Shown piece after piece: positions 21,494-59,932 of a DNA stretch of 59,932 nt. Below the pieces are notes generated by a model. That model was given only the letters and a program-made list of their open reading frames with translations. It was not told the DNA's origin and ran no database searches. Positions within the stretch are counted from its first letter, which is position 1. Each line of letters starts with the position of its first letter. The translations under genes and the position numbers were made by a program. Source of the stretch: a virus (Duplodnaviria; Caudoviricetes); IMG/VR virus record IMGVR_UViG_3300042560_001663, positions 1-59,932 of that record; one strand, written 5' to 3'.

Positions 21494-21616
21494 TGGAGGA
21501 AAAGTGTTGGGGGGTTTGTGTTGATGAATCCCTCACCAACAAGAGTAGAATAGCAGATTTTGAGTGCTGTGCTCATTGATTGTGCCAGTTCATTTATTGG
21601 CACATCGTATCAACAA

Positions 21617-21820
21617 TCAATCGGAAACTTGAGTGTAAAGTGCATTGAAAGCATTGTAGTCAGTGTAATAAAATGTCTGACGACTTTTGCAAAAAAGATA
21701 ATAAGCATCACAACCAAGTTTATAATCAGAAACAACATAATTCCAGTAACCATCAGTCACAACAGTGCCGATTTGTTCTTTGATCAGGTTGTAATCTACT
21801 TTGGTTTGAGTGTTGCTCAT
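21617..21820 (-). CDS. Hypothetical early protein
   Basis: Single ORF exactly filling the interval between two repeat elements 300 bp apart. Confidence 0.7.
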   Translation of the reverse strand: MSNTQTKVDYNLIKEQIGTVVTDGYWNYVVSDYKLGCDAYYLFCKSRQTFYYTDYNAFNALYTQVSD

Positions 21821-21889
21821 TTGGAGGTGTGTCTCTCAACTTCTATAGAATACACCAAACAGAACTCTGTGCTCATTGATTGTGCCAGT

Positions 21890-22276
21890 TCAGATATTGT
21901 CCACACTATAAACGAACTGACGACCGATTGCATTGCGAAAGTCATTCAAATTGGAGAGAATCTGTTGACGATTGTGATAGACTTTCTCACAACCTTGAAT
22001 GAACAGAATTGACAGCAAAACAGACATTGCGATGATAGAAAGAACTGCAGATTTGCAATGTGAGTGTAGATAAGTCCGATAGAACTTACCAACAATCAAA
22101 CCAGCATTGTACGTCTTCTCAATCATATTTGCCAGGAAATTGAGCACCCAAAGCAATGCAGAAACGGTGAAGATTTCAGAACCGATTGCATACACTTTGG
22201 TGCCGTATGTGATCACTGTTTGAATCACTTCTGCGGCAGTTTCAAAAGAAGACAGATAGGAAAGTGACAGGTTCAT
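21890..22276 (-). CDS. Hypothetical membrane protein (start revised to MNLSLSY)
   Basis: Two hydrophobic segments; lies between two repeat elements. Confidence 0.6.
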   Translation of the reverse strand: MNLSLSYLSSFETAAEVIQTVITYGTKVYAIGSEIFTVSALLWVLNFLANMIEKTYNAGLIVGKFYRTYLHSHCKSAVLSIIAMSVLLSILFIQGCEKVYHNRQQILSNLNDFRNAIGRQFVYSVDNI

Positions 22277-22696
22277 GATAATTTGTGTGGGAGGTGAGTG
22301 TAGAGAATCCTCAACCACATGAATACAATAACACCTCTCAAGTGCATTTGGGAATGTTATGTGCCACTACAGATATTGTCCATCGTATAATTTAAGACAG
22401 CAAAAAACACTCAATTCTTATATGCTTTTAAGAAACGAGTTACTGATGTCTTCGGTTAGATTGTGCGACGAATGAAGAATCTCTGTGATAAACTTCTGAT
22501 GTCTGTGATAACGAAACTCATAAGATTATGATATTTTTAGTACTGAATCTAGCAGGGAGTTCTATGTATCCAATGCGAAAGACTTATCTCACCAGGTAAA
22601 CTGTCTGTTGTGCTCTCTTGGTATAGAATTGTGCTATAGATTCTGTCTTGAATAACAGTATCTTATGAGTTTATTTATGTTACTTTGATCTTCAAC

Positions 22697-22870
22697 TCAC
22701 CAACGGTCAGGTGTACTTAAGTCCTCAACATATGCCTCACAGTGTTCAGCAGGTTCCAACTTAAAGAGTTTCTCCCAGTTCAATTGATGCGGATCAAAAT
22801 CACTCATCACGTCCAATTCCAGAGTGACTCTATAACGTTGCTTCTGTGCTTGATGATACGCAACTGACAT
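22697..22870 (-). CDS. Hypothetical protein (MSVAYHQAQK...)
   Basis: AGGAG SD and sigma70 promoter immediately upstream; the track's TTG start is the -35 box. Confidence 0.7.
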   Translation of the reverse strand: MSVAYHQAQKQRYRVTLELDVMSDFDPHQLNWEKLFKLEPAEHCEAYVEDLSTPDRW

Positions 22871-22898
22871 AAGTGGTGCTCCTGATGTGTATGTGAGT

Positions 22899-22927
22899 AT
22901 CCTAAGATGCCTTGTGATTGTTGTCAA
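22899..22927 (-). promoter_or_regulatory. sigma70-type promoter TTGACA-17-TAGGAT
   Basis: -35 at 22922-22927, -10 at 22899-22904. Confidence 0.75.
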
Positions 22928-23002
22928 GGGGTTGGGTTATTTATTTGAGTGAGTGTAGGTTTATAAAGGTTATGTGGGGATTTTATGATATTCCGGGGGG
23001 TC

Positions 23003-23031
23003 TTGACATTTGGGAGAGTTCGTGTTATGAT
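23003..23031 (+). promoter_or_regulatory. Plus-strand sigma70-type promoter TTGACA-17-TATGAT with extended -10
   Basis: -35 at 23003-23008, TG at 23023-23024, -10 at 23026-23031; no ORF downstream on +. Confidence 0.7.
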
Positions 23032-23040
23032 GCGACCTCT

Positions 23041-23133
23041 TAGATAACAAGACTCCGGTACATTAAAAGACTCATAGATCACAACACCTGGACACATTTA
23101 TAAGCATCTAAATCATCACCTTTCAGATACATT
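23041..23133 (+). repeat. Three imperfect direct repeats, 34-bp period
   Basis: tagataacaagactccggtacatt (23041), tagatcacaacacctggacacatt (23075), taaatcatcacctttcagatacatt (23109). Confidence 0.5.
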
Positions 23134-23282
23134 CAACTCAACATTTATACACCTATTCTCAACACATTCCCTTATTGATTCTCAATTAGATAATACTTAT
23201 TGAGAATGAATTAAACAGTTCATTTATATTAAATAATACATTTTTAATTGATTTTTAATACTTTTAGGCACAAAATCACCAT

Positions 23283-24258: not shown

Positions 24259-25516
24259 CATTCAGAAAGTAACAGATTTGACATCATCAGCATACTTTTG
24301 AGCATACCGATTTGCAATGAGTGATGCACTACTGAAACCAAGATACTTTTGATTCTGATACATTGCCCAGATCAATTTCTTGGTTTGAAGATCAGAACAA
24401 GCAACGAAAGTCATCATTCAACCTCCACCATAAACATAGGACACAACACCTTCAGGATGATTGACATTTTCAATCACCTTAATCGGTGCTTCATTAAACT
24501 CTTTTTGCCTTTCTTTGTTATGATCTTTAGCATAGATGCTATCATCATTTCTTCCAAACTTTTTCATAAAGATTTGTTCGCAACGAGGCAAAGATTCAGC
24601 AGCAATCACACACATTCCAGAAGTGTAATCGTAAAGAACATCGGAGATGATGTAGAGATTCATTGGATTCAATCCTGTGCAGAAGAGAAGGTTTCAATGA
24701 ACAAATCCCAGGCAGGATTGTCATCAACAAAAGAATGAATGTTGCACTGATCGCACACCCATTCGTATGCAGAATCACAATCTGCATCAGTATTCAGAAC
24801 AAACGATTGCAGACCTGAAATTGCACTCAGGAAAGCATCATCAGTGACGAGTGATAGACGAAACTTGTTTGTGTGCTTGTCTTGAATCATTGTCATTTGA
24901 GTTGGATTCCTTTGACTCTCTTAATATACAGGAGATTGGGGGCAGTGGGTCGTTGTGTGTGCCACCTGTTCAACTGGCACATCATTACATTTTAGATGTG
25001 AAATCAGACATCATTGTTGTAAACGTCTTGTTCAATTTGAGAGAGAACTTGTTGATTGCACTTTTCTGGAATCAACTCATCATTCTCATCACACAATTCA
25101 CTCAACCAATCATCAAATTGCATCTGATTGAGTGATTGTAGATTGTCCAGTTGTTGTTCAATAGAACGAAGAAGTTGTGCTTGAGTCATTGTTTTGTATC
25201 AATTTGTAGTTTGATAATTGTTGTCAATGCGATCAGAAAAAGTAAACCAGAAATGAATACTCCTACACCATAAACTCCACAATTTGCATCATGATTCAAT
25301 CCACATGTTGAACTATTCCATGAATCGGAAACTTGAAGTGATTGTTTCATCATCAATCACCAAATACTTGTGCATTTTCTTCTGGTGTGACATTGGTAAC
25401 TTCACTTTCCAGAATCTCAATGTTGAACAGATCAAACAACTGATAGAGTGCTTGTTCCAATATCACTGGATTGACTTCTGCTTTATCAATCGTGAATGAA
25501 ATTGTTGAAGTGTTCA

Positions 25517-26016: not shown

Positions 26017-26894
26017 TGGAGTTTTGTCTCTCAACTTCTATAGAATACAGGAAATTGGTGGCAGTGCTCATACCTTGTGCCAGTTCCTTAACTGTCCACA
26101 TTCTCTACACTTTCCAGCATCAATCGTCCCCAAAGTTGTTAGAAAGAAAGTCCTCAAGTTCAGTAAGTTTGTCGTTACTTAAGTTCCAAACATACTCACT
26201 GATGATAGTATCAAAAAGGTCAGCATCTTCACGACACTTTTCTTTCAAAAACCACTCAATTTCAGTTCGGTTAGTCATTTTTGGAACATGATTGCAGTTT
26301 GGTCGCATACAGTTTACGGGCACATTCATATTCCTGTTCAGAATAGTTCCCGTTGTCTATTGTCCAGATTAGTGCTTCCAAAAGGACATCAATCTGTTCA
26401 TCAGTGAAGTGAAACTCTTTGCGGGTGTTAGTCATTTCAGAACGTGAATGTAGTCAAAGGTTTTAATACACCAACCAGTTGCACAAGTGATTTCTTCAAC
26501 TAAATCTTCCTCATCACTTGCTTCCCAGACAGTGTTAGTGACTTCATCAATGATTTGTTGTTGGGCATCTTGAGAAATTGTGCCAAAATCATCCTCAAAA
26601 TCAAACTCAATGTCAACGACTTGGAATAACATAATCAGTAGTTAGAAACGGTTTGGAAAATGATACCAGTTGAGTTGTAACGCAAGTCAACATCACACTG
26701 GTATTCTTCACTCAAACTGTATGCCAAATCAACTGCACGATCTACATCAGTAGTGGTATTCTCCCAAGGAGCAGCATAACATTTGACATCAATTCGGGTG
26801 TCTGGTGAGTGTCTCATTGGTTGTGTTTCTTGAACTTCTTAAGAATACAGGTTTTTGGTGGCAGTGGAGATTCTGTGTGCCAGTTCTTAGAGTG

Positions 26895-27176
26895 TCACAC
26901 TGATGCAGACTTTGCAGATCTGATGATGAGATTTTTAATGAAATTAAAAATAAAGTAAGCACCAAATACTTTCACCCAAGCAACATTCAGTCCGATAAGA
27001 AACACAAGAGATGCCCAAATGATTGTAGGAGCAAGGAAAAGAATAATGATGCCTGCAGTATACTTACCAATGGTTCTTCCAAGTTCTCGTGCTTCAACGT
27101 TCATCCTTTCTTCAGGAGTCATTTTAAGTTTGTTGAGTTCTTGAATGAGTTGTTCAGGAGTGATTTCTTTTGTCAT
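26895..27176 (-). CDS. Two-helix membrane protein (start revised to MTKEIT)
   Basis: Hydrophobic hairpin; bounded by two repeat elements, TGA stop inside the palindrome. Confidence 0.65.
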   Translation of the reverse strand: MTKEITPEQLIQELNKLKMTPEERMNVEARELGRTIGKYTAGIIILFLAPTIIWASLVFLIGLNVAWVKVFGAYFIFNFIKNLIIRSAKSASV

Positions 27177-27254
27177 TTGCGTGAATTGCTTTGACTTTTT
27201 AAGAATACAGGATTTTGGTGGCAATGCTCATACCTTGTGCCACTTATTCAACTG

Positions 27255-27728
27255 TCACAGCAGATGCCGTGAAACACTCAAACAGATTGAATCATTTACA
27301 TTTGCGACACCATATTTCTCTTCAATGTATTCATCATAAAGAGTTTCTTCTTGTTCTCTTGCTTCAATTTCGTGCGGTTGATACTCATACTCATACTTTT
27401 CCACTGGTTCTTTACAATAACACATTTTTCCGTAACGAAGTTGCAGTGAACCAGTTACCCATTGACGAAGATGAACCAATTCGTGCAAAAGAGTTTTAAT
27501 ATACAACTCTTTGTCCATATAAGTTGTCAGTTCAATCAAAAAGTGACGAGGACGATGTGCTTCATCAACAAAATCACAATATCCATAAACTTTTTCCCGA
27601 CGCAATCCACGATGTAGAATATCTACATCAACTTTATGACGTGGCAGAAACTTATTGAGAAACCATTGAGTTACATCTTCACAGACAAGTTTGCTGTAAC
27701 CGTATCCAGAATGATAAATGCTGCTCAT
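27255..27728 (-). CDS. Putative zinc metallopeptidase (SprT/IrrE-like, HExxH)
   Basis: TLLHELVHLRQW and downstream YQPHEIEAR. Confidence 0.7.
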   Translation of the reverse strand: MSSIYHSGYGYSKLVCEDVTQWFLNKFLPRHKVDVDILHRGLRREKVYGYCDFVDEAHRPRHFLIELTTYMDKELYIKTLLHELVHLRQWVTGSLQLRYGKMCYCKEPVEKYEYEYQPHEIEAREQEETLYDEYIEEKYGVANVNDSICLSVSRHLL

Positions 27729-30499: not shown

Positions 30500-31139
30500 T
30501 TGATGTCACCTTCAGCAATCAACGACATAATTTCACGAGCAGTGGCAGCAAAGTTAATGTGGTCTTCAAGTCCTTCATTAGAATAAACATTGAAGACATC
30601 AGATTCTCTGTAAGTGTCAACAATCAATTTGCAGGCATCATAGAGTTCTGCAATGTGATGCTGACGTGTTGGAAAGGAAATCATTGATGTTGTGTGGTTT
30701 GACTCAACAAAGATAGTATAAGGGCATTGTGGGGGCACACAGGTGCCTCTGTGGACACTTAGAGAAGTGTCACCTTTCAAGACATTTTTGCAAGACTTAC
30801 CAAAAGTCTAATCAACAGAAGAACACCAAACACTTGCAGATAAGTAACAGAAAGACCAATCATCAGTGCAAGAATAACATAGAGGACACCTGAAAGAATT
30901 GCCTCTGCAATAATTGCACCAATTACTTTACCGACTGTATGAAGTGCTTCTTTTTTTTCGGTGGAGAGTGTCATTTGTTGTTAAAATGTTGAAGAATAAT
31001 AATTTGCAATGCTCCCAGAGAATATGCTAGGAGAACCAAGATTCCACAAATCATTGAATGTTGTTTGTCTCAGCAGAACTACAATAGACGATTTTGAGTG
31101 CTGTGCCAGGATGTTGTGCCAGTTATTCAGGTGTCACAT

Positions 31140-32259: not shown

Positions 32260-32814
32260 TCAATCAATCGGAAGTTTTGCTTGTGAGTTACTCTTTGGGA
32301 TGATAAGTTCTTCCATAATGATTTGCTTTGGTAGAAAGTTCCAACAATAGTAACTAGAACTGAACGTAATCTTGTCGTTTGGTCTACCATCAGGACTGTG
32401 AAACTTCATCCGTTTGTCAAACATCAACAGTTGAAGATCCTTGTCCTTGAATAACTGTTTCGGAGCACTATCATTCAACCAAGTGTTAGTCATAATGAGT
32501 GCAAATGGTTTGCCAAATGATAATGCCCTCTCAAAGAACTTACGTTTGTTTGTGAATGGTGGATTGGATACAATTACATCCCATTTGAGTGGTTCAAAAT
32601 CAAAGAAATCTTGACCATAACGGATGTGGGAGTAGACTACATCATTCTGCTCACCAATCTGCTTGACAAACTCACTATTTGGAGTATCAAATGGGCACCA
32701 GACGATTACATCTTTGGGAATGTATTTCAGAATGGGAGTAACACCGTATTTTGGAGTATAACATTCGTCGTTGTTACCCTCCGAATACATCAGTTTGCCA
32801 CTGTCAAGAGTCAT
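32260..32814 (-). CDS. Compact amino-methyltransferase (NPPF motif), probably DNA N6-adenine
   Basis: DECYTP, VWCPFD (motif I variant), GQDFF, DVIVSNPPF (motif IV). Confidence 0.75.
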   Translation of the reverse strand: MTLDSGKLMYSEGNNDECYTPKYGVTPILKYIPKDVIVWCPFDTPNSEFVKQIGEQNDVVYSHIRYGQDFFDFEPLKWDVIVSNPPFTNKRKFFERALSFGKPFALIMTNTWLNDSAPKQLFKDKDLQLLMFDKRMKFHSPDGRPNDKITFSSSYYCWNFLPKQIIMEELIIPKSNSQAKLPID

Positions 32815-34219: not shown

Positions 34220-34897
34220 TGTTTGAGTGTCAACAAAGTCATCATAAAGTAAAAAAAGGAACCTTGTGGGTTCCTCTGTGACAGTTTATCAGGTGTCTTC
34301 TTCTTCTTTGAGTTTGTCCATTGCAGTCTTAGATATTTTACAAACTCGGTTATCTTTGTAAAGTTGAGTTACACGTTCCCGACGAAGTTCAAGAAGTCGG
34401 TTGTAAGTTACTTGCTGTCCTTCAGAAAGATTAAAGTCATTGACTCTCCATTCTTTTTGAAGTTCTTGAAGTTGAATCAGGATTTCAGAGGGTTTCATTG
34501 AGAGTTTCTTGTGTGGTTTCTTGAGTCACTTTAGGTGTCACCCGAATGTTGTAAGGTGAATTGAAGAATCTACGAAATGCAGTAACAATAATCAGGAAAG
34601 TTGATGCAACACCAATCAATCCCAGAAAAGTGACAGCATCACCATTAAAATTAAGAGTTTCAGGAGACATAATCAAAAATCGTATTTGGAATTGAGAAAA
34701 GTGTTGAAAGTTTTGTCATCATTTGTATTTTCTTCAAAGAGTTCGTCTTGATAAGATTCTTTGAAGTCAAAGTCATTCAGTTCTTCAACTTGAATGTCAT
34801 CAAACCAATCCATAGAGGTTCCTCAAATGAACAAAAGTAATATACAGAAGATTGTGGTGTTTTTGTGGTGTTGTGTGCCAGTTATTCAGGTGTCCAC

Positions 34898-37663: not shown

Positions 37664-37777
37664 AAAATAGTTGAAGTGTGGTTTGTGTTGAGAGGCAACC
37701 TCTGTGCCTCATAAACTTATGATAGAACGGCACAGGGCAGTTTCAAGATGCTCTGTGCCAGTTCTGCAAGTGTCACA

Positions 37778-38347: not shown

Positions 38348-38389
38348 AGTGTCAGTAGTGGACATATGCAATATACACAAGATGAGAGG

Positions 38390-38560
38390 TCAATCAATAG
38401 GTAATGTGCCACTTGATTGACTGGCACAGTGCTGTTTGATATACTTTTGTGCCTGCAATGAAGTGTTTACAACATCAAGTTGCCGTCCATTGTGAATAAT
38501 CATCAGTTTCTTCCCAAAAGGAACCGCAGCATAATCACCTTTAATAAATCCTTCTTTCAT
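38390..38560 (-). CDS. Small hypothetical protein (56 aa)
   Basis: Not in track. MKEGFIKGDYAAVPFGKKLMIIHNGRQL...; ATGA overlap with helicase stop; its tail reads through the palindrome at 38406-38427. Confidence 0.6.
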   Translation of the reverse strand: MKEGFIKGDYAAVPFGKKLMIIHNGRQLDVVNTSLQAQKYIKQHCASQSSGTLPID

Positions 38561-39783: not shown

Positions 39784-39857
39784 AAGGTAAGAATCAATGA
39801 AGTAATCATATCAAAAATCTGCTGCTGTGGCAAGTGAGTGTGCCAGTTGATAAAGTG

Positions 39858-41453
39858 TCACAGCATAATTAAGTGTGGTGCTGCTGTTAAAGATACCTCA
39901 ACATCTTCATACATTTTACCGAAACTTACCTTTTTACTTAAAAGATTTGAGGTTCCAGAACCTCCAACCTTCACAAATCCTCTCTTTGTGATTGCTCCAA
40001 AGATTGTAAAGAAGATTGCTTTTTTTAAAAATGTCCTAAAAGTTCTTCCACCAACAAAGAAGAAATAAGATAACAAAAGTGAGGTATAATGCTCATAAAC
40101 TCTGTTATTTGGAATTGCATCAACATTTGTTCTAAATCCACCTTCATTTTTAATCATTCTGATGACATTTTTTTGATACAATTCAAATCCACTTGCGTAT
40201 TGCATTTCTTCAAAAAATGGTTTCATAACTTTTTCTAATTCTTTAAATGTATGAAAACCTCTACTACTCAACAGTTGACTGCATTTTTTATATGATGAAA
40301 GTTTTTTAATTTCAGTAAAGTTGTTTCTTGCGGTTGTTCTATTTGTTCTATTCAGTTCACTTAAAATAATATCATCAAACACTCTTAGAAGTTTTATACT
40401 AAGCAATCTCATAATCTGATTATATCCAGAGTATTTTCTAAGAAATGGTTCTAATGACTTAGGTGCCATTCCAGCAACCCACGGAGTAGACGCAGATTTT
40501 GAAGCATCAATATAAAACTTTCCATTAAAACTACCAGATCCCATTGCTGGAAGAGGTTCAAGTCCAAAAATAGTATTATCAAACTCAGGATCTATTTTTT
40601 TATAGTTAAAGTCAAAAAATAGTTTCCACGTTGATGCAGATCCAGCATCTCTTACATCCCATTTATCATACTTAATATCAATTACATCTTCAATTATTTT
40701 CTCAACTTCAATTGGAGATTTTCCACCTAAAACAATTACTAATTGTGAATATGGATCAAGATTACTTTTAGGAACTTTGCCGATTTTTGAAATATCACCC
40801 GCAAGTTTTACTGAAGTTGTAGAATCTCTTCCTTTTGGCATTTTATGTGAGATTGGAATCAAATCACCTGTCTTTAGATACTTCTTAATTAAACCAGCAT
40901 AAGTTTTATCTTTAAATTTGAAATAATTGAGGAGAATAGTTTCATCTTTTTTAGGTTTTATAATAGTATCATTAAAATCTTTTTTGATTTCATTAACTTT
41001 ACTATGATTGACAATATAAAAATCAGCAGGAGTTAAATTCGTTACACTTGCTCCAGCAGATAATGCATCCGCAAATACTTTTGAAAGTCTAGTAAGGCAC
41101 TTATTTTTGATAGTGTCTACAAATACACTATCTTGTCCGTATATTCTATAATCTTTTCCCGTTTGTAGAAAACTAGAGTTAAAAAGACTCACCATTTGAT
41201 TATAAATTGCTTCTAAATGCACATCACCTTTTCCTTTCTCAAAACTATACTTAGATTTAAGAACAGAAAAATTAAAGTTTGGTTCTAAATGAGATTTATA
41301 TTCTTGAGATAATTGTGTTATCTTAAAATCTTTAAAGATGTTTATCCACTCTTCTTTGTGTTGCTCCGAATTAGTTTTATAATCAGGATTTTTTAGAAAA
41401 TATGCAAATGCCAAACACGCAAGATTTTCTTTTGGATCTGCTACTGCTGCCAT
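39858..41453 (-). CDS. 531-aa late protein with divergent PD-(D/E)xK-like motif
   Basis: KENLACL...LTPADFYIV...LIPISHK; CTAAATA at 41468-41474 upstream; AT-richer than neighbours. Confidence 0.5.
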   Translation of the reverse strand: MAAVADPKENLACLAFAYFLKNPDYKTNSEQHKEEWINIFKDFKITQLSQEYKSHLEPNFNFSVLKSKYSFEKGKGDVHLEAIYNQMVSLFNSSFLQTGKDYRIYGQDSVFVDTIKNKCLTRLSKVFADALSAGASVTNLTPADFYIVNHSKVNEIKKDFNDTIIKPKKDETILLNYFKFKDKTYAGLIKKYLKTGDLIPISHKMPKGRDSTTSVKLAGDISKIGKVPKSNLDPYSQLVIVLGGKSPIEVEKIIEDVIDIKYDKWDVRDAGSASTWKLFFDFNYKKIDPEFDNTIFGLEPLPAMGSGSFNGKFYIDASKSASTPWVAGMAPKSLEPFLRKYSGYNQIMRLLSIKLLRVFDDIILSELNRTNRTTARNNFTEIKKLSSYKKCSQLLSSRGFHTFKELEKVMKPFFEEMQYASGFELYQKNVIRMIKNEGGFRTNVDAIPNNRVYEHYTSLLLSYFFFVGGRTFRTFLKKAIFFTIFGAITKRGFVKVGGSGTSNLLSKKVSFGKMYEDVEVSLTAAPHLIML

Positions 41454-41958: not shown

Positions 41959-42510
41959 TTGGAGTTTAATTCTAAAGTCATCATAAACAAAAAAGAGGAC
42001 TTGTAAAGTCCTCGTGTGCCAGTAATTCAACCGCCCTTTTCTTTCAAACTCCGTACAAGATACTCAGTAAATGCTTCCATCTTCTGTGGTGCAACTTGTG
42101 AAATGTTATAATCAATCGCATCTTTAAGTGCAGTCATTTCATTCCATTCTGTATCTGTAAGTTTTTCTGCGTGTTTGGATGAAAATGACATAGTTTTTTT
42201 GCTCCCAGAAATATCTTGAAATCCTAACACTATTTAATCAAGTTTGGAGGTTGCTTAAGATTGTCTTTAGAGTGTTGTTACAAAACTTAATCATTAAAGA
42301 ATGAACCAAAACTACCACGACTGTCTGGTTTTCTGCTCTCCAACATATCCATCAGTTCTTCAATTTTCTTGCATTGTTCTAAATCAAGTAGAAGTTTGGA
42401 AAGTTGTTGAACTACCAGTGGTTTTTCATTTGTTGCAGCACTTTTAATTGCAGCACGAAGGTGTGATTCTGCTTCTAAAAGATGATCCAGTGTTTGTTTT
42501 GATAGTGCCA

Positions 42511-45903: not shown

Positions 45904-46259
45904 TTGAACCCCTTTGCCTCTTGTTTTCTATCTAGGACTTCAATGTGACTTAGAAAGTTTCCATTACGGTTCCACCATAAAGATTTTGCATCTTCATAGT
46001 TGTCAAATACTTGATAAGTGCCGTCATTATAAACTACCTTATAATCGTGAAGAAGATAAGGTTCATCTGATGTTTGCTTAAAGATTTTCATTTGTTGATT
46101 GTTGTAAGAAGAACCCATAACCAAACCTCTAATACTATAAGAACAATGATTTCAACAAAAACTGGTGGAAGTGTCATTTGGGGTTCTTTTATATGAGGGT
46201 ATTATACGACAAAAAGCACCTAATTTCAAGGGCCCCCTGTTCCAGTTTGTCAAGGGTCC

Positions 46260-46955
46260 TTATGTTACTCTAACTCTACCCATCTCCCAACCATCACCGG
46301 GACATTCTACACTTCTTTTATTAATTTGCCCATCATTCCACCATTTTGTTCCTCTTACTTTTTGAGATAATATTTTAATTGCTTCTTTTTGTTTTTCACT
46401 TTGAGGTTTTCCTTTTTTTGACTGACTTATTTTTATTTTAGTTTCTTCACTAACAATTTTATTCAAGTTCCATTTTCTTATTTTTTCTTTATGCTCTTCT
46501 GAAAGTTTTCTTCCAATATTCCACTTATTTCCTATTTTTGATTTTTTTAGTTTTTCTATAGTTTGTTTGGAATGTTTTTTAACTCTATGTTTTTCAAGTA
46601 TTTGTTTATGTTTTTCAGAAAGAGTTTTACCTTTATGAATTTTACTCATCTTTTGTTTAGTTTCATCAGTCATTCTCAATCCAGTAGAACCTTCACCACC
46701 ATCAGTTTTATTGCGAAGAATACCAGTTCCCAAATCAATTCTTCCAAGCACATCAATCATATAGATTTCGTGCTTGAATGCGTCTTCTTCCGTTAGATTT
46801 TGTTTAAGAAAAATTATCCTTGATTTATCAGTTGGTTTTCCAACTTCACCCTTAACTTTCTTATATGCTCTATTTTCTTTACCTTTGCCTATGTAATAGG
46901 GAGTTCCATCCTCACGCAAATACGCATAAGTATAAAATCTATATGGATTTACCAT
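46260..46955 (-). mobile_element. Free-standing GIY-YIG-type homing endonuclease with NUMOD3 repeats
   Basis: FYTYAYLREDGTPYYIGKG...R...E...LRN.TDGGEG; repeated (M/L/H)SEETKxKIS...KG motifs; C-terminal KWWNDG...PGDGW.MGR. Confidence 0.8.
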
Positions 46956-49043: not shown

Positions 49044-49577
49044 CTTTTAAAAATAGTGCGTCAAGTCGTTCCCTATACAATCTTTCAAAATGTAATGTTA
49101 GTAAGTATTCATCATAAGTAATAGTCATATGATATTTACCTTTCAAAGTAAGAATAGTTTCCATATCTTTAACCTCAGTATGAGGCAAATTTAAAAACTC
49201 TTGATAGGTTATTAGTTTATCTTTATTTTCCTGAGGAAAATCAGGTTCTTGTGGAAAACCAAAATTAGTCATCTTTTCTTCTCAATCAATCTCTTCAATT
49301 TGAATAATGTCTCCAAGACGTTCCTCTCCTTTAACTAATTCCCCCTGTTTAGTGAAATAAAATTCAAGAAACTCATACGCATATGTATCTCCAAAATGAG
49401 TAATAAACTTAATATAACCTTCGTGTGGATTTCTCTTATTCTGTCTAAAATTCACACTAACTTTCTTATCAACAAACTTTGAGAGGTCAATTTGAGAAGT
49501 CATCAGGTGTCTGTGTGTATGAGAGTATTATAAGGCAAAAAGGGGTCTTGTGGAGACCCCCTGTGCCAGTTTAAGTG

Positions 49578-49745
49578 TCATTCTGCCTCCAGTTCGTCAG
49601 CAATATCAAGAATGTTTTTTTCGGTAATACCAATATATTTCAATTGATTTACCACTTCACGAAGAGTGGCAGCAAGAGTTTCATTACCACGAAACTTTGG
49701 TTTCCAGTAAGTATCAAGGATTGCTTGTATCTGGTGTTCAGTCAT
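49578..49745 (-). CDS. Small helical protein, dispersed paralog family (55 aa)
   Basis: Not in track. MTEHQIQAILDTYWKPKFRGNETLAATLREVVNQLKYIGITEKNILDIADELEAE; sits alone between two repeat elements. Confidence 0.75.
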   Translation of the reverse strand: MTEHQIQAILDTYWKPKFRGNETLAATLREVVNQLKYIGITEKNILDIADELEAE

Positions 49746-51019
49746 TAGAAAGTTCCTCTGTGTGTATGAGAGTATTATAGGGCATCAAGGGGCATCTGTG
49801 AAGTGCCTCTGTACAAGTTCTTCAAGTGTTTTCTATTCTCAATACAAACCATCCCTTCTTTGTCTGTTTTTTCTTTTCCTATCCATAAAATATTCAAGAA
49901 CACCAAATCCCATAGAAATAATAATATATGGAAGTAGGATTATCACAATAAATTCAATCATCAGGTGTCTCAACTATAATTGAAGTGTAAATGAGTTTGC
50001 CAAATACCAAAAGATTTCTCTCTCAACATATAAGCAATCACATCAGGAAGAAATCGTGTGTATTTGTCAAGAAATTCCCGTTCTTCAAGTTCTTCTGTTC
50101 CTTGTAGATAAAAATCAATATCTACAAACTTCTCCCATCTTTTCTGGAAATAATCTTCTGGATATGATGGAGAGTTATTGCGGGAGATTTGTAGGAAGAT
50201 AGTTCTACCTTCACCAGTCCCATAATAATCAATCACATAATACTTGTAGAATGGTTCAGTCATAATCCAATGTTTCTCACATATTCGTGTGCTGTTACTA
50301 TTTTTTGAAGGTCATTAACTTGACTTTTAAGTTCTTCAACTTCTTGTTTAAGTTCCCAAATATAATCCTTCAAGTTCCACTCAACATCACCAATCAGTTG
50401 AAATAGTTCTTCAAGTGTGAGTTCGTGATTGCGAGTTTCACTCCACTTTGCTCGTTCAGGTCTTTCACTCATAGTCATTATCCAATAAAGAGATTTGTAG
50501 AAATGTCGTAAAAGTATTGAGGTGGTTCGTCTGGTTTCTTTTCTGGTTCTGGTTGATAAGAACTTTGTGGTTTTTGTTGAGTTTTTAGATACTCTTTGAC
50601 TTCTTCCACACTCATTTCGTGAAGTTTTGGTTGTTCAGTCATTATTCTTCCTCACTCGTTCAAGAAACTCATCTGCTTGGTTACGAAGACCTTCAATCAA
50701 TCCCTCAATATCCTCAATCGCAATATTATTATACTCCCGATTGAGATATTCACAACGAATAGCATCAATCATACTTTCCATTGCAATAATCTGTTGATGC
50801 TCTGGTGTGATTGGTGTGCCGTGAGGAAGTCCAGAAGTTTCAAAATTGTGAAAGTCATTATATCGTTGCAGAATACGATTACTCTTCTCACGACGTTCTG
50901 CTTCCTCAAACATCGCATCAGGATAAGGTTCGCAGTCCATAATGTTCCTTTGATTTCTTCTATTATACAACAAAAAAGGGCACCTGTGAAGTGCCCGTGT
51001 TCCAGTTTGTTAGGTGTCC

Positions 51020-51721
51020 TTATGATATTCTAACTCTTTGAGAAGTGTCTATACCTCGTGCTCTTTGATATCCTGTTAAAGTTCCAGGATGAGTAATAAA
51101 TCCAGTTTCTAAACACATCCACTTTTGAGAATTTGTAATTTTAGCATTCTCACTTCTTTGTTCTTTACTTAACGCAAATATACCAACTCCAAGTTCTTTT
51201 GCTTTTTTACCACCTATTCCTGTTTTACCTCCTTTACTGCTTGCTTTTTTCTTTTCTTCTTCGGGCATAGAAAAAAATCCAACACCAAGTTCTTTTGTTC
51301 TTTGACCTCCTTTTTTACCTCCAATTTTTCCAGCATTTTTTGAAAATTGAATTCTCTCTTCTTTTGAATATTTGAAGAAACCTCTTCTTAATTCATAATT
51401 CATCTTACCAACTTCTCTTTTTACATCAAGAGAAACCATACCACCACAATTTTCATTCAAACACCATTTATCGGTATTAAAAAATGGTTTGATTAATCTT
51501 TCTTCAACTTTATTTGCTTCCAACCAACCTTCATCGGTATAATCAAACATCTCTAATATTTGCTTCTTTGGAGTATAAAGTTCCCAACACCATTTGTTTG
51601 TTTTTGGAGAACCCCAATAATCATCATTAAAATATTTTTCCTTATGAACTCCATAATAGTAATATGGAACTTCTTCAAAAGTAATTTTATACAAGTATAT
51701 TCTTGGACTTTGTGAAGTCAT
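51020..51721 (-). mobile_element. Free-standing GIY-YIG-like homing endonuclease
   Basis: IYLYKITF...YYYGVHK...YWGS...E..LI...CLNEN catalytic-domain pattern; repeated GGK...KELGVG.F..S.EE modules. Confidence 0.7.
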
Positions 51722-54554: not shown

Positions 54555-54737
54555 CGTTCATCATCCTCCACAGGAAACCCATCCATCTCTTTTAGCTTCT
54601 TTACTATACCAATAATCAAAATACCACACTCTAAAATCACAACGATAATATTGAACTAAACCAAACTCATTTGCATCCTCTTTTGTTGGACTATGAGTGT
54701 AGATGAGGTCTTTGGTGTCTAATACATTTTTAGTCAT

Positions 54738-54944: not shown

Positions 54945-56873
54945 TTCAGTTGTCCTCTCTCAAACGAATACTACCTTCAATCTCACCTCGCATATCATAA
55001 AAATACTCTTTGGCAGTAGAAAGGCACCAGTTATCATAGTCCTTTTGTGTTGGATTTCCTTCGGTTTCTTGAAGCCGAAATTGTTCCCACATTTCCAAGA
55101 ACTCATCTACGGAAAGTGTGTATTCCAGAGAAACATATGCTACTTTGGGAATTATGTGATTAGACATAGAAGGAAAATTTTGGACTGCGATGAGAAGGTC
55201 GTTTCCAGTAAGCATAAGAGGTGTCTGTGTGTATGAGAGTATTATAAGGCACTCACAGGGTCTGTGGTGAGGTCTTGTGACGGTTTAGAAAGTGTCTTCG
55301 TATTTCAGTTTTAAAACAAATATTACAATCAGGGATATGATACTTACTGAATGCCAAATTTGTTCATCAGTCATAATAAACATCCTCCTCATAAGCAACA
55401 TAGTCAGTTTGAAGATGGCAGAAGAAATCTCCACCACTATCTTCTGGGTGTGTCATAGTATAACACCATTCATCAAAGATTTCTCCTACCCACCACCAGC
55501 CAACTTGGATTTTCTCAAAGAAGTTCATAGGACGATTGTAGAGTTTCGTCATCGGGCACCTTCTTTAATCATTTTACGCATCGTTGTTTCAAAAATAATG
55601 TCTTTTTCCAGTTCGTATGGTGATGCTACTTGGAGATAGGTTTGATACTGATGCTCGTTGAGGTCTTTGGAAGGAATGCAACCATTATAAGAGATGATTT
55701 TTTGGATTGCTTTTTCAATTGGTTCTTCATAAACCCCTTTGAAGATAAACATCAGTTATTCTTCATCCTCCTCATCATCACTCCCCCAGTCAATCTCAAC
55801 GGTTTCAAACTGCTCTACATTAGTGTAAGGCATAGGATTTGCAGGTCCTCCCATCTCATAATGGATTTTATCAAACAATTCTCCAAGCACTAAACTCTCA
55901 AATGCTTCCTGGTCTGGATAATCCTCCCAGTCCTCAAACATTTCAGTTGTGGGAGCAACTGTGAGAGTTCGGGTGTAAGTTACTGTGACTGCTTTGAGTT
56001 GGATTTTAGTCATTCTTCATCCTCAACAGGGAACATAGCATCATACTCTTCATCAGTTAGTGTGAGATACTGGACATCAGCATCTTGATGTTCTTCGGCA
56101 TACATCAGTTGGTAATGTGCAAAGGAACTTTCAGAAGTGCTGGCATATTCTACAAGACCATCAACAAGGCAGAGGTAGTTCATTTCAGTTCAGAATAATT
56201 GCTAACTCGGTGTTGTTGTCTTTGTATGAAGAACTTACGATGTCTTGAACTTCTATATCATAAACATCCTCAAAACCAATACCAGATGTTTTAACTACGA
56301 TAGTGTCATCAGGAACCTCAAGATTGACGAGAGCATCAATTAGTTGTTTTTTAGTGAGTGACATCAGTTTCTTTGTGTATGAGAGTATTATAAGGCAAAA
56401 AGGGCACCTGTGGAGATGCCCTGTGCCAGTTCTTCAAGTGTCCTATTTAAGTTCATCTTCTTGTCTTTCAATTTCAAAAGTTTCGTTGAGAAACTCAATT
56501 GCGTATTTTCCTACTACGAATGCATCTTTATCTTCAAAGAACCTAGTGCCGATGGTTCTCATATCATAACCTTCTTTGTGTTTATCAAAGAAAGCAATCA
56601 CATAGCAGTTTTCACTACCATCAGTGTTCTCATACCAACTAACCAGTTCATATTTGTTGTTGTATTTACTGAAACGAAATTCAATCTTACGAAATCTCAT
56701 TGTTCTCCAACATAGTTTTGATTTGTTTGAGATCTTCTACCCTTTGTTTAGCAATGTCATACTCCTCACAATACCAATCAATGTTATTGTTCTCATAATT
56801 GGTTTCCTCCCTAATGTCCCATTCAAGACATTGTAGATGTCCTTCTTGATCGTTGATGAAGTAGTTGAGAGTT

Positions 56874-57149: not shown

Positions 57150-57567
57150 TTTGGATCAGCAAGTTTGTAGGGGAACTCTTTGCCCGACAACTCATCATAC
57201 AGCAGTCGGGCAAAGATGATGTGGGGTCTTGTGCCAGTTTCAATTGCGGACGATGTGGCAACAGTCCACATAATATCAAGGTTTTTTTTATCAGGTAAGG
57301 GTTTCATCCAACTCATTCAAACGATCAAAGTTCCAAGTTCTTTCAATCAATCCAATATCAAATCCAAACTTATAAGCCCAGAAGAGAATACTTAAGGTGC
57401 TTCCACTTCCAGACTTGATTTGTAGATAAGGCCAAGATGGATAATCATTCCAACTTACAGATACTTGAAGCAAACTCCAACGATTGATGTTTAAGATTTG
57501 CACATAGTATTCGTGTCCAAAATCTTCACGATGATTATACTTAATCAAAAATTTGCGTTTATTAAAT

Positions 57568-57768
57568 TTAATCAAGTTCATACAGTTCCTCCGCAATTTT
57601 TAATAGATCATCTTTATCCAGAACAATTAAATCGTTCTGGGCATTATAAGTTTTTACAAAATTAGAGGCAGTCAAAAGAACAGCAGAAACTAACTTTTCT
57701 TCAGTATCAGCACCATTATTGCGACATTCCCATACTGCATTCATAAACTCCTTTGCTCTGTCTGTCAC
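57568..57768 (-). CDS. Small helical protein, dispersed paralog family
   Basis: MTDRAKEFM...VLDKDDLLKIAEEL. Confidence 0.65.
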   Translation of the reverse strand: MTDRAKEFMNAVWECRNNGADTEEKLVSAVLLTASNFVKTYNAQNDLIVLDKDDLLKIAEELYELD

Positions 57769-58199
57769 ACTCCCTCCTCAAGATTAGTTTGTTGGACTTC
57801 TTCTTCGGTATATTCTACAGTTCCCATAGGTCCTTTAGGTGCTTTCATCAGTCGTGCAATCTCTTCCTCACGGATTTTATATTCCTGAAACTTATCTTCA
57901 AGGTCTTCATCCATCGTCAGTTCATATTCCTTGCAAACTTTGCGTTGGTCTTCTTCACTTACCCAATCATTAAACACCAGAGACATTGCACCACTACGGA
58001 TACTTTTGGGGTCCATACCAACACACAACATAAACTTCTCAAACAGTTTGAAATACTGCTTTGCGTTCAAGTCTGCAGCAGGTGCAGTAATCAGGTAGTG
58101 CTCTTCAGGAATATAATCATCACCAGTCCACGATGATGTTCCATAAGTTGGTGTGAATGTGGCATCAAATTGCAATCGGACTTCGGCAGAATAAGTCAT
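57765..58199 (-). CDS. Hypothetical protein (144 aa)
   Basis: First ORF after the promoter element at 58223-58263, which also has TTGACT-17-TATAGT. Confidence 0.7.
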   Translation of the reverse strand: MTYSAEVRLQFDATFTPTYGTSSWTGDDYIPEEHYLITAPAADLNAKQYFKLFEKFMLCVGMDPKSIRSGAMSLVFNDWVSEEDQRKVCKEYELTMDEDLEDKFQEYKIREEEIARLMKAPKGPMGTVEYTEEEVQQTNLEEGV

Positions 58200-58682
58200 T
58201 GGAGTGGTGTTTCAATACAGATACTATAAAACCCCTGACTGGTAAAGTCAAGGGCAAGTGGACGGTTTTTAAATTGGACTATGAAGATAGAATTGATCGG
58301 CAAATCCTTTTACAAACTTGTTGATTGTCATCACATTCAATCAAACAATTATAATAATCATTAATCATATCATTTTGTTCGTTTGCCCTCTCTATAGTTT
58401 GGTTTAAATGATCCAAATTTTGTTTCCATCCAGCCAGTTGATTATAAGAAATTAAGTTGTGCATAATAACCCCCAATGCACAAAGAACATCATAACAAAG
58501 TTTGGTTTTCGTTCATAGGTTTTCTCACTCCATCATTCTATCACTATTTAGATATTATGTCAGGGTTTCTTAACATAACTTATTCTGCGTCTCTTCTACC
58601 AATCAAATATCCAAGATAAAGACCACATAAAAATGCAATAAAAAAATAAAGTTCTTTAGATACAAATTCAATCATTTCCATA

Positions 58683-59381
58683 TTAATATTTGATTGTCTG
58701 AAAGAAACCATTCTTTTCTACAATTGCTGTTGTTGAGTCAACGAAATCACCGCAGCACATATACTCAATCTTATCAAACTTTCTCATATTGTTATGGTGT
58801 ATGTGACCACAGATAATGCCCTTATAATCTCCTTTCTGCCTACAATAGTTTGCTAAGTCAGTTTCATATTGATTGATATAATTCTTTCCTTTGATTGTAT
58901 TCTTCAGTGCATAAACCAAAGAAAACCTAAAAATCTTTTCTAAAAACAAACTCATTGGAGTAATGAATTCATATCCCCAATTAAAGCAGAGTTGTTTCCA
59001 AGAACCAGAAGAGAATTCAGAGTGTTGATCTCCGTGTGTGCAAAGATACTTATCTCCATCTTTTGTTTTATACACATATTCTTCAACCATTTTAAAGTTC
59101 TTGTGCTCAAAAGGACAGTATCTCCTCAACATTCCTTCGTGATTTCCAGGAATATAAATGACTTCTACACCTTTCTTTGCAAGGTTTAAAATTTGATGCA
59201 CACATTCAGTATGTTCCTTTTTCCAATGCGTATTATATTTTTCCATACAATACACATCAATAATATCTCCAACCAAGATCAGTTTCTTGGTTTTGATTTC
59301 TTTGAGAAACTTATGAAACTTTTTGACATTGCACCGAGTCACTCCAAGGTGAACATCTGACACGAAGACTGCATCAAACAT
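58683..59381 (-). CDS. Calcineurin-like metallophosphoesterase, LpxH/UDP-2,3-diacylglucosamine hydrolase-like
   Basis: SDVHLG, VGDIID, PGNHE, HGD, CGHIH metal-binding motifs. Confidence 0.85.
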   Translation of the reverse strand: MFDAVFVSDVHLGVTRCNVKKFHKFLKEIKTKKLILVGDIIDVYCMEKYNTHWKKEHTECVHQILNLAKKGVEVIYIPGNHEGMLRRYCPFEHKNFKMVEEYVYKTKDGDKYLCTHGDQHSEFSSGSWKQLCFNWGYEFITPMSLFLEKIFRFSLVYALKNTIKGKNYINQYETDLANYCRQKGDYKGIICGHIHHNNMRKFDKIEYMCCGDFVDSTTAIVEKNGFFQTIKY

Positions 59382-59612
59382 TTTGGTTTTCCTCCAATTC
59401 TTTCATAAGTTCTTTTGCAAGTTTCATTGAACGACGATGCATACTATACCGTGCCCAGGGTGTTTTGGGATGATACATTACAATCCATTTATATTTCTCA
59501 TACTGAAATTTGATGAGATTGATGACAAATAAAAATGCCTTTGCGACACTCTGATCTGTGCAAATCAGGTATGCAGCAAAAGCAAAGAGTATTAAGTATA
59601 TGTATTGGGAAG

Positions 59613-59822
59613 TCACTTAATGATATTCCAGTGTGTGTCGTTCTCTTTATTTAACCAGAAACAATACCTCTTGTTAATGGATACTACAAAGAGTTCAGTT
59701 TCAGTCTCTTGTTCCACTTCCATTGCGTGTAGAGAATCCATCTGATTTATAAAACGATTTTTTGCCTTTGAACTTTTAGGAGCAACGTTGATTAAGTGAC
59801 GTTTGGTTTTCATAGAGTTCAT
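59613..59822 (-). CDS. Hypothetical protein, paralog of 25517..25711
   Basis: Shared PKS.KA.NRF.N.M and FW....ND..W motifs. Confidence 0.7.
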   Translation of the reverse strand: MNSMKTKRHLINVAPKSSKAKNRFINQMDSLHAMEVEQETETELFVVSINKRYCFWLNKENDTHWNIIK

Positions 59823-59845
59823 TGTTTTTCAACCCCCACAAAGGG

Positions 59846-59874
59846 ATTATACAGAGATTGGTAGAGTGTGTCAA
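59846..59874 (-). promoter_or_regulatory. Perfect consensus sigma70 promoter TTGACA-17-TATAAT
   Basis: -35 at 59869-59874, -10 at 59846-59851. Confidence 0.85.
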
Positions 59875-59932
59875 GTACATACTATAAAACCCCCAGCAGA
59901 AGACTGTGGGGGTTAGTGGACGGTTTATGAGG

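Follow-up and report, generated by a model that had tools for sequence, protein, structure and literature searches.

What is the function of a palindrome that recurs on the minus strand at a near-constant distance from a −10 box in a stretch of viral DNA, and which protein would read it? The stretch analyzed here (the window) comprises the 59,932 nucleotides of IMG/VR record IMGVR_UViG_3300042560_001663, and a first-pass annotation had counted 25 such elements in it. Our recount confirmed that the repeat is real but revised the number: between 21547 and 56445 there are 22 solid minus-strand elements, to which two degenerate variants (58280 and 59926) and two weak ones can be added. Each consists of a 24-bp dyad, TGTG(A/C)CA(S)TT-N4-AA(S)TGGCACA, and, after a spacer of 28–31 nt, a −10 box of the form TAnnnT. 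The elements are as follows.

59881..59926, minus: variant element truncated at the window end; AAACCGTCCAC, hairpin, T-run and TATAGT, then a perfect TTGACA-17-TATAAT at 59874–59846
58223..58280, minus: variant element; AAACCGTCCAC, terminator hairpin containing TTGACT, T-run, TATAGT, spacer 28
57194..57253, minus: weak candidate within coding sequence; only the proximal half, with TATGAT at 30 nt
56387..56445, minus: element, subfamily B; dyad 56445–56422, terminator hairpin and T-run in the 29-nt spacer, TATAAT 56392–56387
55241..55299, minus: element, subfamily B; dyad 55299–55276 (degenerate AAACCGTCACA), hairpin without T-run, TATAAT
50962..51021, minus: element; dyad 51021–50998, 30-nt spacer holding a terminator, TATAAT
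49774..49833, minus: degenerate element (AACTTGTACA); hairpin without T-run, TATAAT
49527..49585, minus: element; intact proximal and displaced distal half, spacer terminator, upstream stop 49578–49580 inside
46201..46261, minus: element; dyad 46261–46238, weak hairpin and T-run, TTGAAA-17-TATAAT
41980..42038, minus: element; dyad 42038–42015 with poor distal half, spacer terminator, TATGAT; forms the left edge of a cassette that is replaced in relatives
39805..39862, minus: element upstream of the helicase gene; full dyad, TTGCCA-17-TATGAT, upstream TGA stop inside the distal half
38370..38428, minus: element; dyad 38428–38405, TATATT
37719..37777, minus: element; full dyad, without hairpin terminator, TATCAT
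34839..34897, minus: element; dyad 34897–34874, unstructured spacer, TATATT
34241..34300, minus: element; dyad 34300–34277, spacer terminator, TATGAT
31081..31138, minus: element; full dyad, distal edge an indel breakpoint (31586/31137) in relatives L186–L188
30715..30774, minus: element; dyad 30774–30751 (GTGACACTT-N4-AAGTGTCCA), TATACT, breakpoint 30760 in relative L188
28200..28257, minus: element, subfamily A; full dyad, TATTCT, distal edge bordering a movable two-gene methylase module
27202..27259, minus: element, subfamily A; recombined with the 26899 element
26842..26899, minus: element, subfamily A; recombined with the 27259 element
26042..26099, minus: element, subfamily A
24923..24981, minus: element, subfamily A; TATATT
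22325..22383, minus: element; poor distal half, TATTGT
21847..21904, minus: element, subfamily A
21547..21604, minus: element, subfamily A, the last of the array

The strict pattern GTGCCASTT-N3-5-AASTGYCAC was found 4 times in the window versus 0 times in 100 shuffles, and 23 times (both strands) versus 0.18 expected when up to three mismatches were allowed. These two counts are the independent test against chance, because our two-block matrix was trained on 20 of the window's own elements. Scored with that matrix (24-bp dyad plus −10 box, spacer of 27–32 allowed, cut-off 8 bits), the minus strand had 24 matches versus 0.6 in 30 mononucleotide shuffles, while the 10 plus-strand matches are minus-strand dyads read in reverse. 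The strand bias is also visible in the single motif TGGCAC, with 34 minus-strand versus 7 plus-strand occurrences.

The geometry of the array is tight. Among the 22 solid copies the spacer measures 28 nt in eight, 29 in nine, 30 in four and 31 in one. The gap between half-sites, previously given as 3 or 5 nt, is 4 in every solid copy except that at 49585. A canonical −35 box was said to be missing throughout; a sigma-70 scan (criterion ≥9 of 12 positions) rejected a −35-like hexamer in 13 of the 22 solid copies and accepted one in the other nine. Spacer hairpins with a T-run are present as annotated at 34278, 42016, 49563, 50999 and 56423, but the 37755 spacer has neither a stable hairpin nor a T-run (MFE −1.3 kcal/mol). 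The variant pair (58280–58223 and 59926–59881) repeats one build, including the 28-nt spacer. Because a terminator lies inside the spacer of just five of 22 solid copies (six of 24 with the variants), the suggested role of ending one transcript and starting the next is limited to a minority. The stop codons at 26895, 27255, 28253, 39858 and 49578 all fall inside the distal half-site, in agreement with the earlier observation, and in 15 of 21 copies examined the stop of the upstream ORF ends −4 to +15 from the first base of the dyad.

If the transcription start site (TSS) lies about 7 nt downstream of the −10 box, the dyad would occupy about −41/−42 to −64/−65, close to the −43 to −65 proposed for a dimeric activator replacing the −35 box. 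The position proposed for a dimer-type site is supported; nine of the 22 copies do have a −35-like hexamer. In cyanobacterial promoters of the NtcA type, GTA-N8-TAC replaces the −35 box and ties expression to nitrogen status. The phage units resemble these in their TAnnnT −10 box, upstream dimer site and, in 13 of 22 copies, absence of a usable −35, but differ in sequence and in position (dyad centered at about −53, NtcA site at about −41.5).

The unit is widespread. At least 166 stretches of cyanophage-like IMG/VR viral contigs carry it, and among the matches listed a TAnnnT lies 26–32 nt downstream of the dyad in 174 of 241 unique oriented viral instances, with offset peaks at 29 (85) and 30 (60). 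S-PM2 has 10 forward matches, and Syn9, for which a related motif had been mentioned in the first-pass annotation, indeed has about seven units in the syntenic small-gene region. Doron and colleagues reportedly described, in ISME J in 2016, a novel, conserved regulatory element preceding early genes in T4-like cyanophages, Syn9 among them, said to be abundant in genomes and metagenomes; to our knowledge they named no binding factor. The dyad units found here, in Syn9, in S-PM2 and widely in IMG/VR, may correspond to that element. We take the units to be real promoters before small genes of a T4-like cyanophage. Ahead of the helicase gene, relatives retain the −10 box together with the proximal half, while spacer and upstream context change; in several of them the distal arm is missing there, so that a dimer site is not always kept.

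Among the matches listed, the two S positions of the viral dyad are identical in 197 of 242 instances and complementary in 45; because of this identity the dyad is evidently not an RNA hairpin. The proposed likeness to integron cassette boundaries does not stand either. An attC site is an imperfect hairpin-forming sequence at the 3' end of a promoterless cassette, with an integrase nearby. Here the arms are anti-complementary at S in those 197 instances, every unit has its own −10 box, and no integrase or recombinase was found among the 123 window ORFs scanned.

Might the units nevertheless serve chiefly in recombination? PeSL cassettes, described in T4-type coliphages and vibriophages (Arbiol et al. 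2010, PMC2839356; Comeau et al. 2014, PMC4122927), are likewise terminator/promoter repeats at ORFan borders in hyperplastic regions, and at our units, too, some indels end; cyanophages are treated in neither paper (0 occurrences in the 2010 text, PMC2839356). That the elements are mainly modules of this type, shuffling ORFan genes with transcription control as a secondary role, appears improbable to us. It would fit the one clean element-to-element recombination, in which the window has two elements (27259 and 26899) and a gene where relative L187 has a single hybrid element, as well as the cassette 42026–39848, which has an element at both borders and is replaced in at least 12 relatives, and the four indels that end at the exact distal edge of the dyad. 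Yet of 25 unique indels relative to close relatives, only six have a breakpoint inside an element, against 19 with both ends elsewhere, and the idea of cassette exchange points is weakly supported. At gene junctions, in close relatives 9 of 16 element junctions were used as breakpoints versus 24 of 77 element-free ones (odds ratio 2.8, one-sided p = 0.055), and in all 22 relatives 13 of 17 versus 48 of 79 (p = 0.17), although for junctions of at least 40 nt the contrast was 9 of 16 versus 1 of 12 (p = 0.011). Moreover, host genomes and only remotely related phages share the dyad-to-(−10) geometry, for which recombination has no need, and homology starting at a promoter is also expected from selection on the promoter alone. 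PeSL elements are consensus sigma-70 promoters, with −35 and −10 boxes, that have AT-rich sequence upstream and lack an activator dyad; of the phage units, 9 of 22 pass the sigma-70 criterion given above and 13 do not. Most indels avoid the phage units, and the adjacent stem-loop terminator of a PeSL is found in just 5 of 22 solid units (6 of 24 with the variants), where it sits inside the promoter, between dyad and −10. Because the repeats of about 60–100 bp share one orientation, we expect them to be substrates for homologous recombination at times, deleting or inserting genes as a by-product of their main role as promoters.

A candidate for the reader comes from the host side, where the dyad has a counterpart that is new relative to the first interpretation. 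In cyanobacterial genomes, 7 of 15 dyad loci have a Cyano-1 RNA (RF01701) starting 40–41 nt after the dyad. Conversely, 10 of 29 unbiased Cyano-1 upstream regions in a sample of the phylum match the phage-derived matrix at ≥8 bits, with 0.07 expected (13 of 33 including motif-selected genomes), and the matches end 37–44 nt before the RNA, with a mode of 40. The phage units, with their spacers of 28–31 nt, thereby match the yfr2 architecture of non-marine cyanobacteria, TGTGNCASTT-N4-AASTGNCACA with TAnnnT about 30 nt on and the dyad ending about 40 nt before the transcript; the proximal arm prefers TGGCAC in phage and TGTCAC in host sites. We read the phage dyad as the operator that stands, equally spaced, upstream of the yfr2 (Cyano-1) small-RNA genes of cyanobacteria.

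In Prochlorococcus, the yfr2 site is CGRE1, which the GntR regulator PMM1637 (PlmA) binds and activates (Lambrecht, Wahlig and Steglich 2018, PMC6191309). The yfr2 promoter pulled down PMM1637, the protein shifted both yfr2 and yfr4 promoters, and an R50A substitution abolished binding (PMC6191309). In the MED4 yfr2 promoter oligo AACTGGCACA directly abuts TGTGACAATT, and the published mutant shuffles exactly this stretch (PMC6191309). Both 10-mer arms of CGRE1 (AACTGGCACA and TGTGACA-A/G-TT) are common to the phage dyad; compared with the oligo, the phage arms agree at 10 of 10 (AACTGGCACA) and 9 of 10 positions (TGTGACA(S)TT). Like the phage unit, CGRE1 is a palindrome that precedes a promoter whose −35 is weak, and the protein bound to it is an activator (PMC6191309). 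Together with the equally spaced dyad of host yfr2, these half-sites bear out the earlier view that a site of dimer type precedes the core promoter. The arrangement differs, however. CGRE1 is a 21–22-nt palindrome with abutting arms that begins 55–57 nt upstream of the TSS (PMC6191309), its arms in opposite (everted) order, whereas the phage arms span 24 bp with a 4-nt gap and end about 41–42 nt before the presumed TSS. CGRE1 would thus lie at about −76 to −55, some 12 bp further upstream than the phage dyad at about −65 to −42, although its promoter-proximal arm TGTGACAATT, at about −65 to −56 by our count on the published oligo, coincides with the phage distal arm. CGRE1 was also reported before sRNA genes only and called restricted to marine picocyanobacteria (PMC6191309), while the phage sites head protein genes and their arm order recurs at the yfr2 genes of many other cyanobacteria. 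In marine Synechococcus, the host of S-PM2 and Syn9, yfr2 is reportedly CGRE1-ordered, yet both phages use the other order.

The binding factor had been held unidentifiable from the window; based on the half-sites, we propose host-encoded PlmA as most likely. Could the phage supply the protein instead? A phage-encoded or virion-delivered reader, competing with or replacing PlmA at middle-type or self-regulated promoters and thereby accounting for the likeness to the yfr2 operator, seems unlikely. The proximal arm is more uniform in phage (TGGCACA) than in host sites and differs at one position, the window is only about one third of a genome of such type, and cyanophages do encode transcription factors, among them a MarR-type factor of P-SSP7 (PMC9692554). 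Against this, no GntR or other helix-turn-helix Pfam domain was found among the 123 window ORFs, where the sole related matches were an at-threshold RHH (TacA1-like, 22.2 versus a cut-off of 21 bits) and a below-threshold AbrB-like domain, and the full dyad architecture is also present in uninfected cyanobacterial genomes.

Accepting a host reader, the units would probably be sigma-70-type early promoters at which a PlmA dimer at about −42 to −65 activates, with recombination as a by-product. In such a mechanism, each unit of the small-gene, early-type region of this T4-like cyanomyovirus would serve host RNA polymerase through a TAnnnT −10 box with little or no −35, and PlmA on the dyad, about 28–31 nt upstream of the −10, would recruit the polymerase. 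In a minority of copies the otherwise free spacer accommodates an intrinsic terminator, and these units would also end the upstream transcript. The data show the repeat with its geometry, its distribution among phages, the counterpart in hosts and the matching half-sites; PlmA binding to the phage arrangement, activation and early timing are what we infer from them. That the dyad acts in the opposite sense is quite improbable: as a repressor operator, PlmA or another bound factor would delay phage genes, or as a decoy, some two dozen copies per genome would titrate the few PlmA molecules of the host and switch off yfr2. The numbers may allow titration, given about 200 PlmA dimers per cell in S. 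elongatus according to the figure legend of a review (PMC7344720), and 22–24 sites in the window alone, which replication would multiply. Nevertheless, the dyad lies upstream of the core promoter rather than overlapping it, and PMM1637 increased rather than decreased reporter expression from CGRE1 promoters (PMC6191309).

Activation by PlmA would couple the first genes of the phage to the nitrogen, light or redox state of the host; as its box is built from PlmA half-sites, the phage may tie these genes to host nutrient and light sensing. More tentatively, and with a little less than an even chance, T4-like cyanophages may run their early small-gene arrays via PlmA, the yfr2 reader and a partner of the nitrogen/energy sensor PII-PipX. 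If so, the start of infection would be gated by host nitrogen, light and redox state, and dozens of sites per replicating phage genome might drain PlmA from host yfr2 genes. The site itself would then be an old GntR-operator promoter design of Cyanobacteria and Acidobacteriota, and CGRE1 a rearranged derivative.

The dyad, with its −10 spacing unchanged, is also common in Acidobacteriota, from which PlmA proper is said to be absent; another GntR-like reader would therefore exist, and the phage sites, too, could be read by a protein other than PlmA. Recognition of the dyad by GntR proteins is independently hinted at in Bryobacterales, where a GntR-type gene starts 11 nt from the dyad at two loci.

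All credible genes of the window, a 59.9-kb viral contig, lie on its minus strand. PHROG matches included baseplate wedge proteins, a 4047-aa giant protein, a helicase, DNA methylases and homing-endonuclease-like genes, and Megablast returned weak matches only, to S-PM2 and other Synechococcus myoviruses. The window is part of a T4-like cyanomyovirus, and 21.5-59.9 kb is its small-gene array, syntenic with Syn9 gp55-gp93 (small genes, methylase and helicase, then baseplate wedge). The 4047-aa ORF, at 3641-15784, adjoins the baseplate genes and is of the giant structural type seen in cyanomyoviruses.

Within this array we found a recurrent unit which, aligned on the minus strand, consists of the dyad TGTG(A/C)CA(S)TT-N4-AA(S)TGGCACA (S being G or C), a spacer, a TAnnnT hexamer as -10 box, a leader of 20-60 nt and a start codon. 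From dyad to hexamer the spacer measures 28 nt in 8 copies, 29 in 9, 30 in 4 and 31 in 1. The strict motif has four matches in the window versus none in 100 shuffles, and allowing up to 3 mismatches gives 23 on both strands versus 0.18 expected; the count for TGGCAC alone is 34 on the minus strand versus 7 on the plus strand. A two-block matrix built from 20 window copies, for which the two preceding motif searches serve as the independent test, scored 24 minus-strand matches at ≥8 bits versus 0.6 in shuffles, and its 10 plus-strand matches are the same dyads in reverse reading, lacking a -10 box. With two additional degenerate copies, one at 58280 and one where the window ends, the 25 elements counted in the first-pass annotation are a fair figure. 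Copies between 21.5 and 31 kb (subfamily A) have TATTCT and a leader in common (TATAGAAGTTGAGAGAC and the like), and those between 34 and 56 kb (subfamily B) have TATAAT, a common leader of their own (ACTCTCATACACACAGACACC) and usually a GC hairpin. Since Syn9 and unrelated viral contigs have both leader types as well, the leaders are conserved parts of the unit and not merely recent copies.

The suggestion that the spacer ends one transcript and starts the next applies to a minority of units. Among the 22 solid units, our terminator scan placed a hairpin with T-run exactly between dyad and -10 box in five (34277, 42013, 49562, 50996, 56422), not in the others, and it did so in the variant at 58255; at 37755, where the first-pass annotation gave a GC hairpin, there is no terminator. 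Terminator-like sites overall were not enriched over shuffles (8 vs 10.2; 14 vs 8.6). By RNAfold, the five terminator spacers reach -10.4 to -12.8 kcal/mol, two other hairpin spacers (46261, 55299) -6.5 and -7.4 kcal/mol, and the remainder 0 to -4.4. The described lack of a canonical -35 box likewise holds only in part, as for 9 of 22 units, and not for the others, a sigma-70 scan accepted a -35-like hexamer (e.g. TTGCCA-17-TATGAT at 39833); in subfamily B it reads TCCACA or TTCACA and makes up the loop of the terminator hairpin. The observation that upstream stop codons often fall in or beside the distal half-site, farther from the -10 box, is borne out: the stop of the upstream ORF ends between positions -4 and +15 relative to the first dyad base in 15 of 21 units examined, and in four it is the TGA within TGTGACA.

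Two other readings of the dyad were considered. A sigma-54 reading of TGGCAC is ruled out by the lack of TTGC at +5; sigma-54 is not known from cyanobacteria. An RNA hairpin is ruled out because the arms are anti-complementary at S and the dyad in hosts precedes the transcript. At the two S positions, 197 of 242 viral instances have identical letters and 45 complementary ones (among the matches listed), which argues for a protein site and against an RNA or cruciform hairpin.

The host counterpart of the unit was found upstream of a small RNA. A scan for the symmetric 24-mer in one genome per prokaryote species gave at least 121 stretches, by title mostly Acidobacteriota, with cyanobacteria accounting for 7 of 80 among the matches listed. 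Fifteen loci picked among those listed (cyanobacterial by title where a title was given) were searched with Rfam, and seven hold Cyano-1 RNA (RF01701, the Yfr2 sRNA family), starting 40-41 nt after the dyad and with TATTCT 30 nt after it. Cyano-1 is present in 52 of 151 sampled genomes of the cyanobacterial phylum. The phage-derived matrix at ≥8 bits matches 13 of 33 regions upstream of Cyano-1, versus 0.07 expected, with 37-44 nt (mode 40) from dyad end to RNA in these 13; when four genomes reached through the motif itself are left out, 10 of 29 match. Therefore, the phage unit is a yfr2-type promoter of cyanobacteria.

This identification points to a candidate factor. CGRE1, the site before Prochlorococcus yfr2, belongs to PMM1637 (PlmA, GntR family). 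The text of PMC6191309 reports that PMM1637 shifts the yfr2 and yfr4 promoters and not shuffled, yfr3 or yfr5 ones, that R50A abolishes its binding, that in E. coli it increases GFP from yfr2 and yfr4 promoters, and that high light and nitrogen starvation increase Yfr2 and Yfr4. In the promoter oligo, AACTGGCACA is immediately followed by TGTGACAATT, and exactly that stretch is shuffled in the mutant (PMC6191309, Table S1). These CGRE1 arms are both arms of the phage dyad, although they abut in opposite order, whereas the phage dyad has a 4-nt gap. Counted on the published oligo, whose end we took as about -1, consistent with the "55-57" of PMC6191309, CGRE1 extends from about -76 to -55, with its TGTGACAATT arm at about -65 to -56. 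That arm would coincide with the phage distal arm if the phage transcription start lies 7 nt after the -10 box and the oligo does end at about -1. CGRE1 was thought by its authors to be restricted to marine picocyanobacteria, and its marine Synechococcus form is given here as stated in the text of PMC6191309. As the phage-order dyad precedes yfr2 in many cyanobacteria, a phylum-wide regulatory link is suggested. In five small cyanobacterial genomes, the everted CGRE1 pattern gave no match and a loose phage-type pattern did not rise above a reversed-pattern control; one loose match lies in genome G145, 40 nt ahead of a Cyano-1 RNA. PlmA is further described as binding PII-PipX complexes, as being reduced by thioredoxin and as having a regulon that is still unknown (PMC7344720). 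If PlmA does read the phage element, cyanophage infection would be tied to how the ecologically dominant picocyanobacteria sense nitrogen, light and redox state. No Pfam match to a GntR or helix-turn-helix domain was found among the 123 ORFs of the window, itself part of the phage genome. We know of no MotA/AsiA scheme like that of T4 in T4-like cyanophages. In the searchable literature, the factor behind their early transcription is unnamed, "CGRE1" leads to no phage paper, "TGGCAC" with "cyanophage" to nothing relevant, and a PlmA/yfr2 link of the phage element is absent.

The dyad extends beyond cyanobacteria. In the bacterial set, mostly Acidobacteriota, TAnnnT stands 28-31 nt from the dyad in 83 of 121 loci, with counts of 5, 23, 46 and 12 at offsets 28, 29, 30 and 31 versus 2.9 per offset elsewhere (both among the matches listed). 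Often an ATG follows 6-8 nt after the -10 box in these loci (L264-L384; e.g. L311, L296, L305), before small signal-peptide proteins, which suggests regulon-like leaderless mRNAs of small secreted proteins; no Pfam family is common to 80 dyad-adjacent ORF fragments from these mostly acidobacterial loci. Picocyanobacterial PlmA aligns with 313-356-aa frames in 3 of 5 acidobacterial genomes (27-29% identity, covering residues 9-245 or more of 335), and in two Bryobacterales loci the dyad is 11 nt from the start of a GntR gene. Judged from these PlmA-like frames and neighbouring genes, GntR proteins probably read the dyad outside cyanobacteria too, which supports the protein family and weakens the claim that the reader is necessarily PlmA itself.

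Among phages the dyad pattern is widespread, with at least 166 stretches in IMG/VR. TAnnnT lies 26-32 nt downstream in 174 of 241 unique oriented instances, peaking at offsets 29 (85) and 30 (60), among the matches listed. Some IMG/VR contigs have a true TTGAC -35 hexamer 6-9 nt past the dyad, which therefore sits just upstream of -35. There are 10 forward matches in S-PM2, three at gene borders in its "ORFanage" region, and about seven units in Syn9, compatible with the related Syn9 motif mentioned in the first-pass annotation. A Syn9 transcriptome study (Doron 2016) reportedly placed early genes under a "novel regulatory element". For Syn9 the class is reportedly already in print, where it is not linked to a named factor. 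With 22-24 units in 38 kb, the window adds an unusually rich member to this class. The sole RNA run found, a freshwater metatranscriptome (X1; share 0.08), yielded short contigs of related variants only, in which neither transcript starts nor transcript ends are visible.

Other arrangements were also seen. More distant relatives (L205-L263; helicase 57-62% identical) have a different unit upstream of the helicase gene, in which a single half-site-like word (AAACTGTCC, AAAGTGTCC or AAACTGCAC), preceded by a GC-rich GGGGCC word, is followed after 2-4 nt by a TATAGT/TATAAT box. The text of PMC6191309 mentions a host yfr2 promoter whose motif lies at -20. Of 150 unique matches in viral contigs (IMG/VR L451-L571; e.g. 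L452, L473, L476, L482), 34 are the everted CGRE1-type 20-mer AACTGTCACATGTGACAGTT, which repeatedly lies between a conserved stretch (GGACTCGAAAGATCGTAACCC...) and GTAATATTTAT; Rfam gave no family for 12 loci with the everted motif.

The elements had also been proposed as gene-cassette exchange points, an aspect of lesser importance. With the helicase as bait we obtained 80 related loci and compared 22 with the window. The four closest relatives (L185-L188) show 25 unique indels or replacements, of which 6 have an element at an end and 19 do not; the majority remove exactly one gene at tight junctions free of elements (e.g. 33307-32255, 37127-36943, 34672-34502, 30122-29966). Breakpoints fall in 9/16 element junctions versus 24/77 element-free ones in close relatives (odds ratio 2.8, one-sided p=0.055) and in 13/17 versus 48/79 in all 22 (p=0.17). 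Element junctions are longer (94 vs 19 nt); against element-free junctions of at least 40 nt, the figures are 9/16 versus 1/12 (p=0.011) in close relatives and 13/17 versus 9/14 (p=0.36) in all. Individual cases do favour exchange: two elements and the gene between them (27259-26876) correspond to one hybrid element in L187, a crossover within the unit; the cassette 42026-39848, flanked by two elements, is replaced in L189-L204 and L248; and a two-gene methylase module ending at the dyad edge 28256 is missing in L187 and L204 and has another position in L189. Before the helicase gene, the dyad centre is where the conserved promoter meets at least 8 different upstream contexts, and the distal arm is missing in some relatives, a pattern for which a recombination hot spot and simple selection for the proximal arm and -10 box are alternative explanations. 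Nothing resembles an integron. We conclude that recombination at the repeats occurs and is not their main role; gene shuffling is an occasional side effect of many repeats in the same orientation.

Several further features of the array were recorded. The gene pair at 32260-33317, with weak PvuII-endonuclease-like and Eco57I-methylase-like matches below Pfam cut-offs, is exactly missing from L185 and L188 and so may be a movable restriction-modification-like module. At 22320-22700, 378 nt without a called gene lie upstream of the 22383 element. Other promoters in the array are as follows; TATAAATA is the sequence of the T4-type late promoters.

51779-51730, minus strand, T4-type late promoter
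47019-46960, minus strand, T4-type late promoter
~32265-32250, minus strand, T4-type late promoter
~23230-23100, minus strand, T4-type late promoter
59874-59846, minus strand, perfect TTGACA-17-TATAAT promoter (12/12), directly downstream of the window-end variant element

Two of the late promoters come after a terminator and head the homing-endonuclease-like genes 51020-51721 and 46260-46955, the latter with a NUMOD3 match. At the upstream end of the array, the window-end variant element and the TTGACA-17-TATAAT promoter form tandem promoters.
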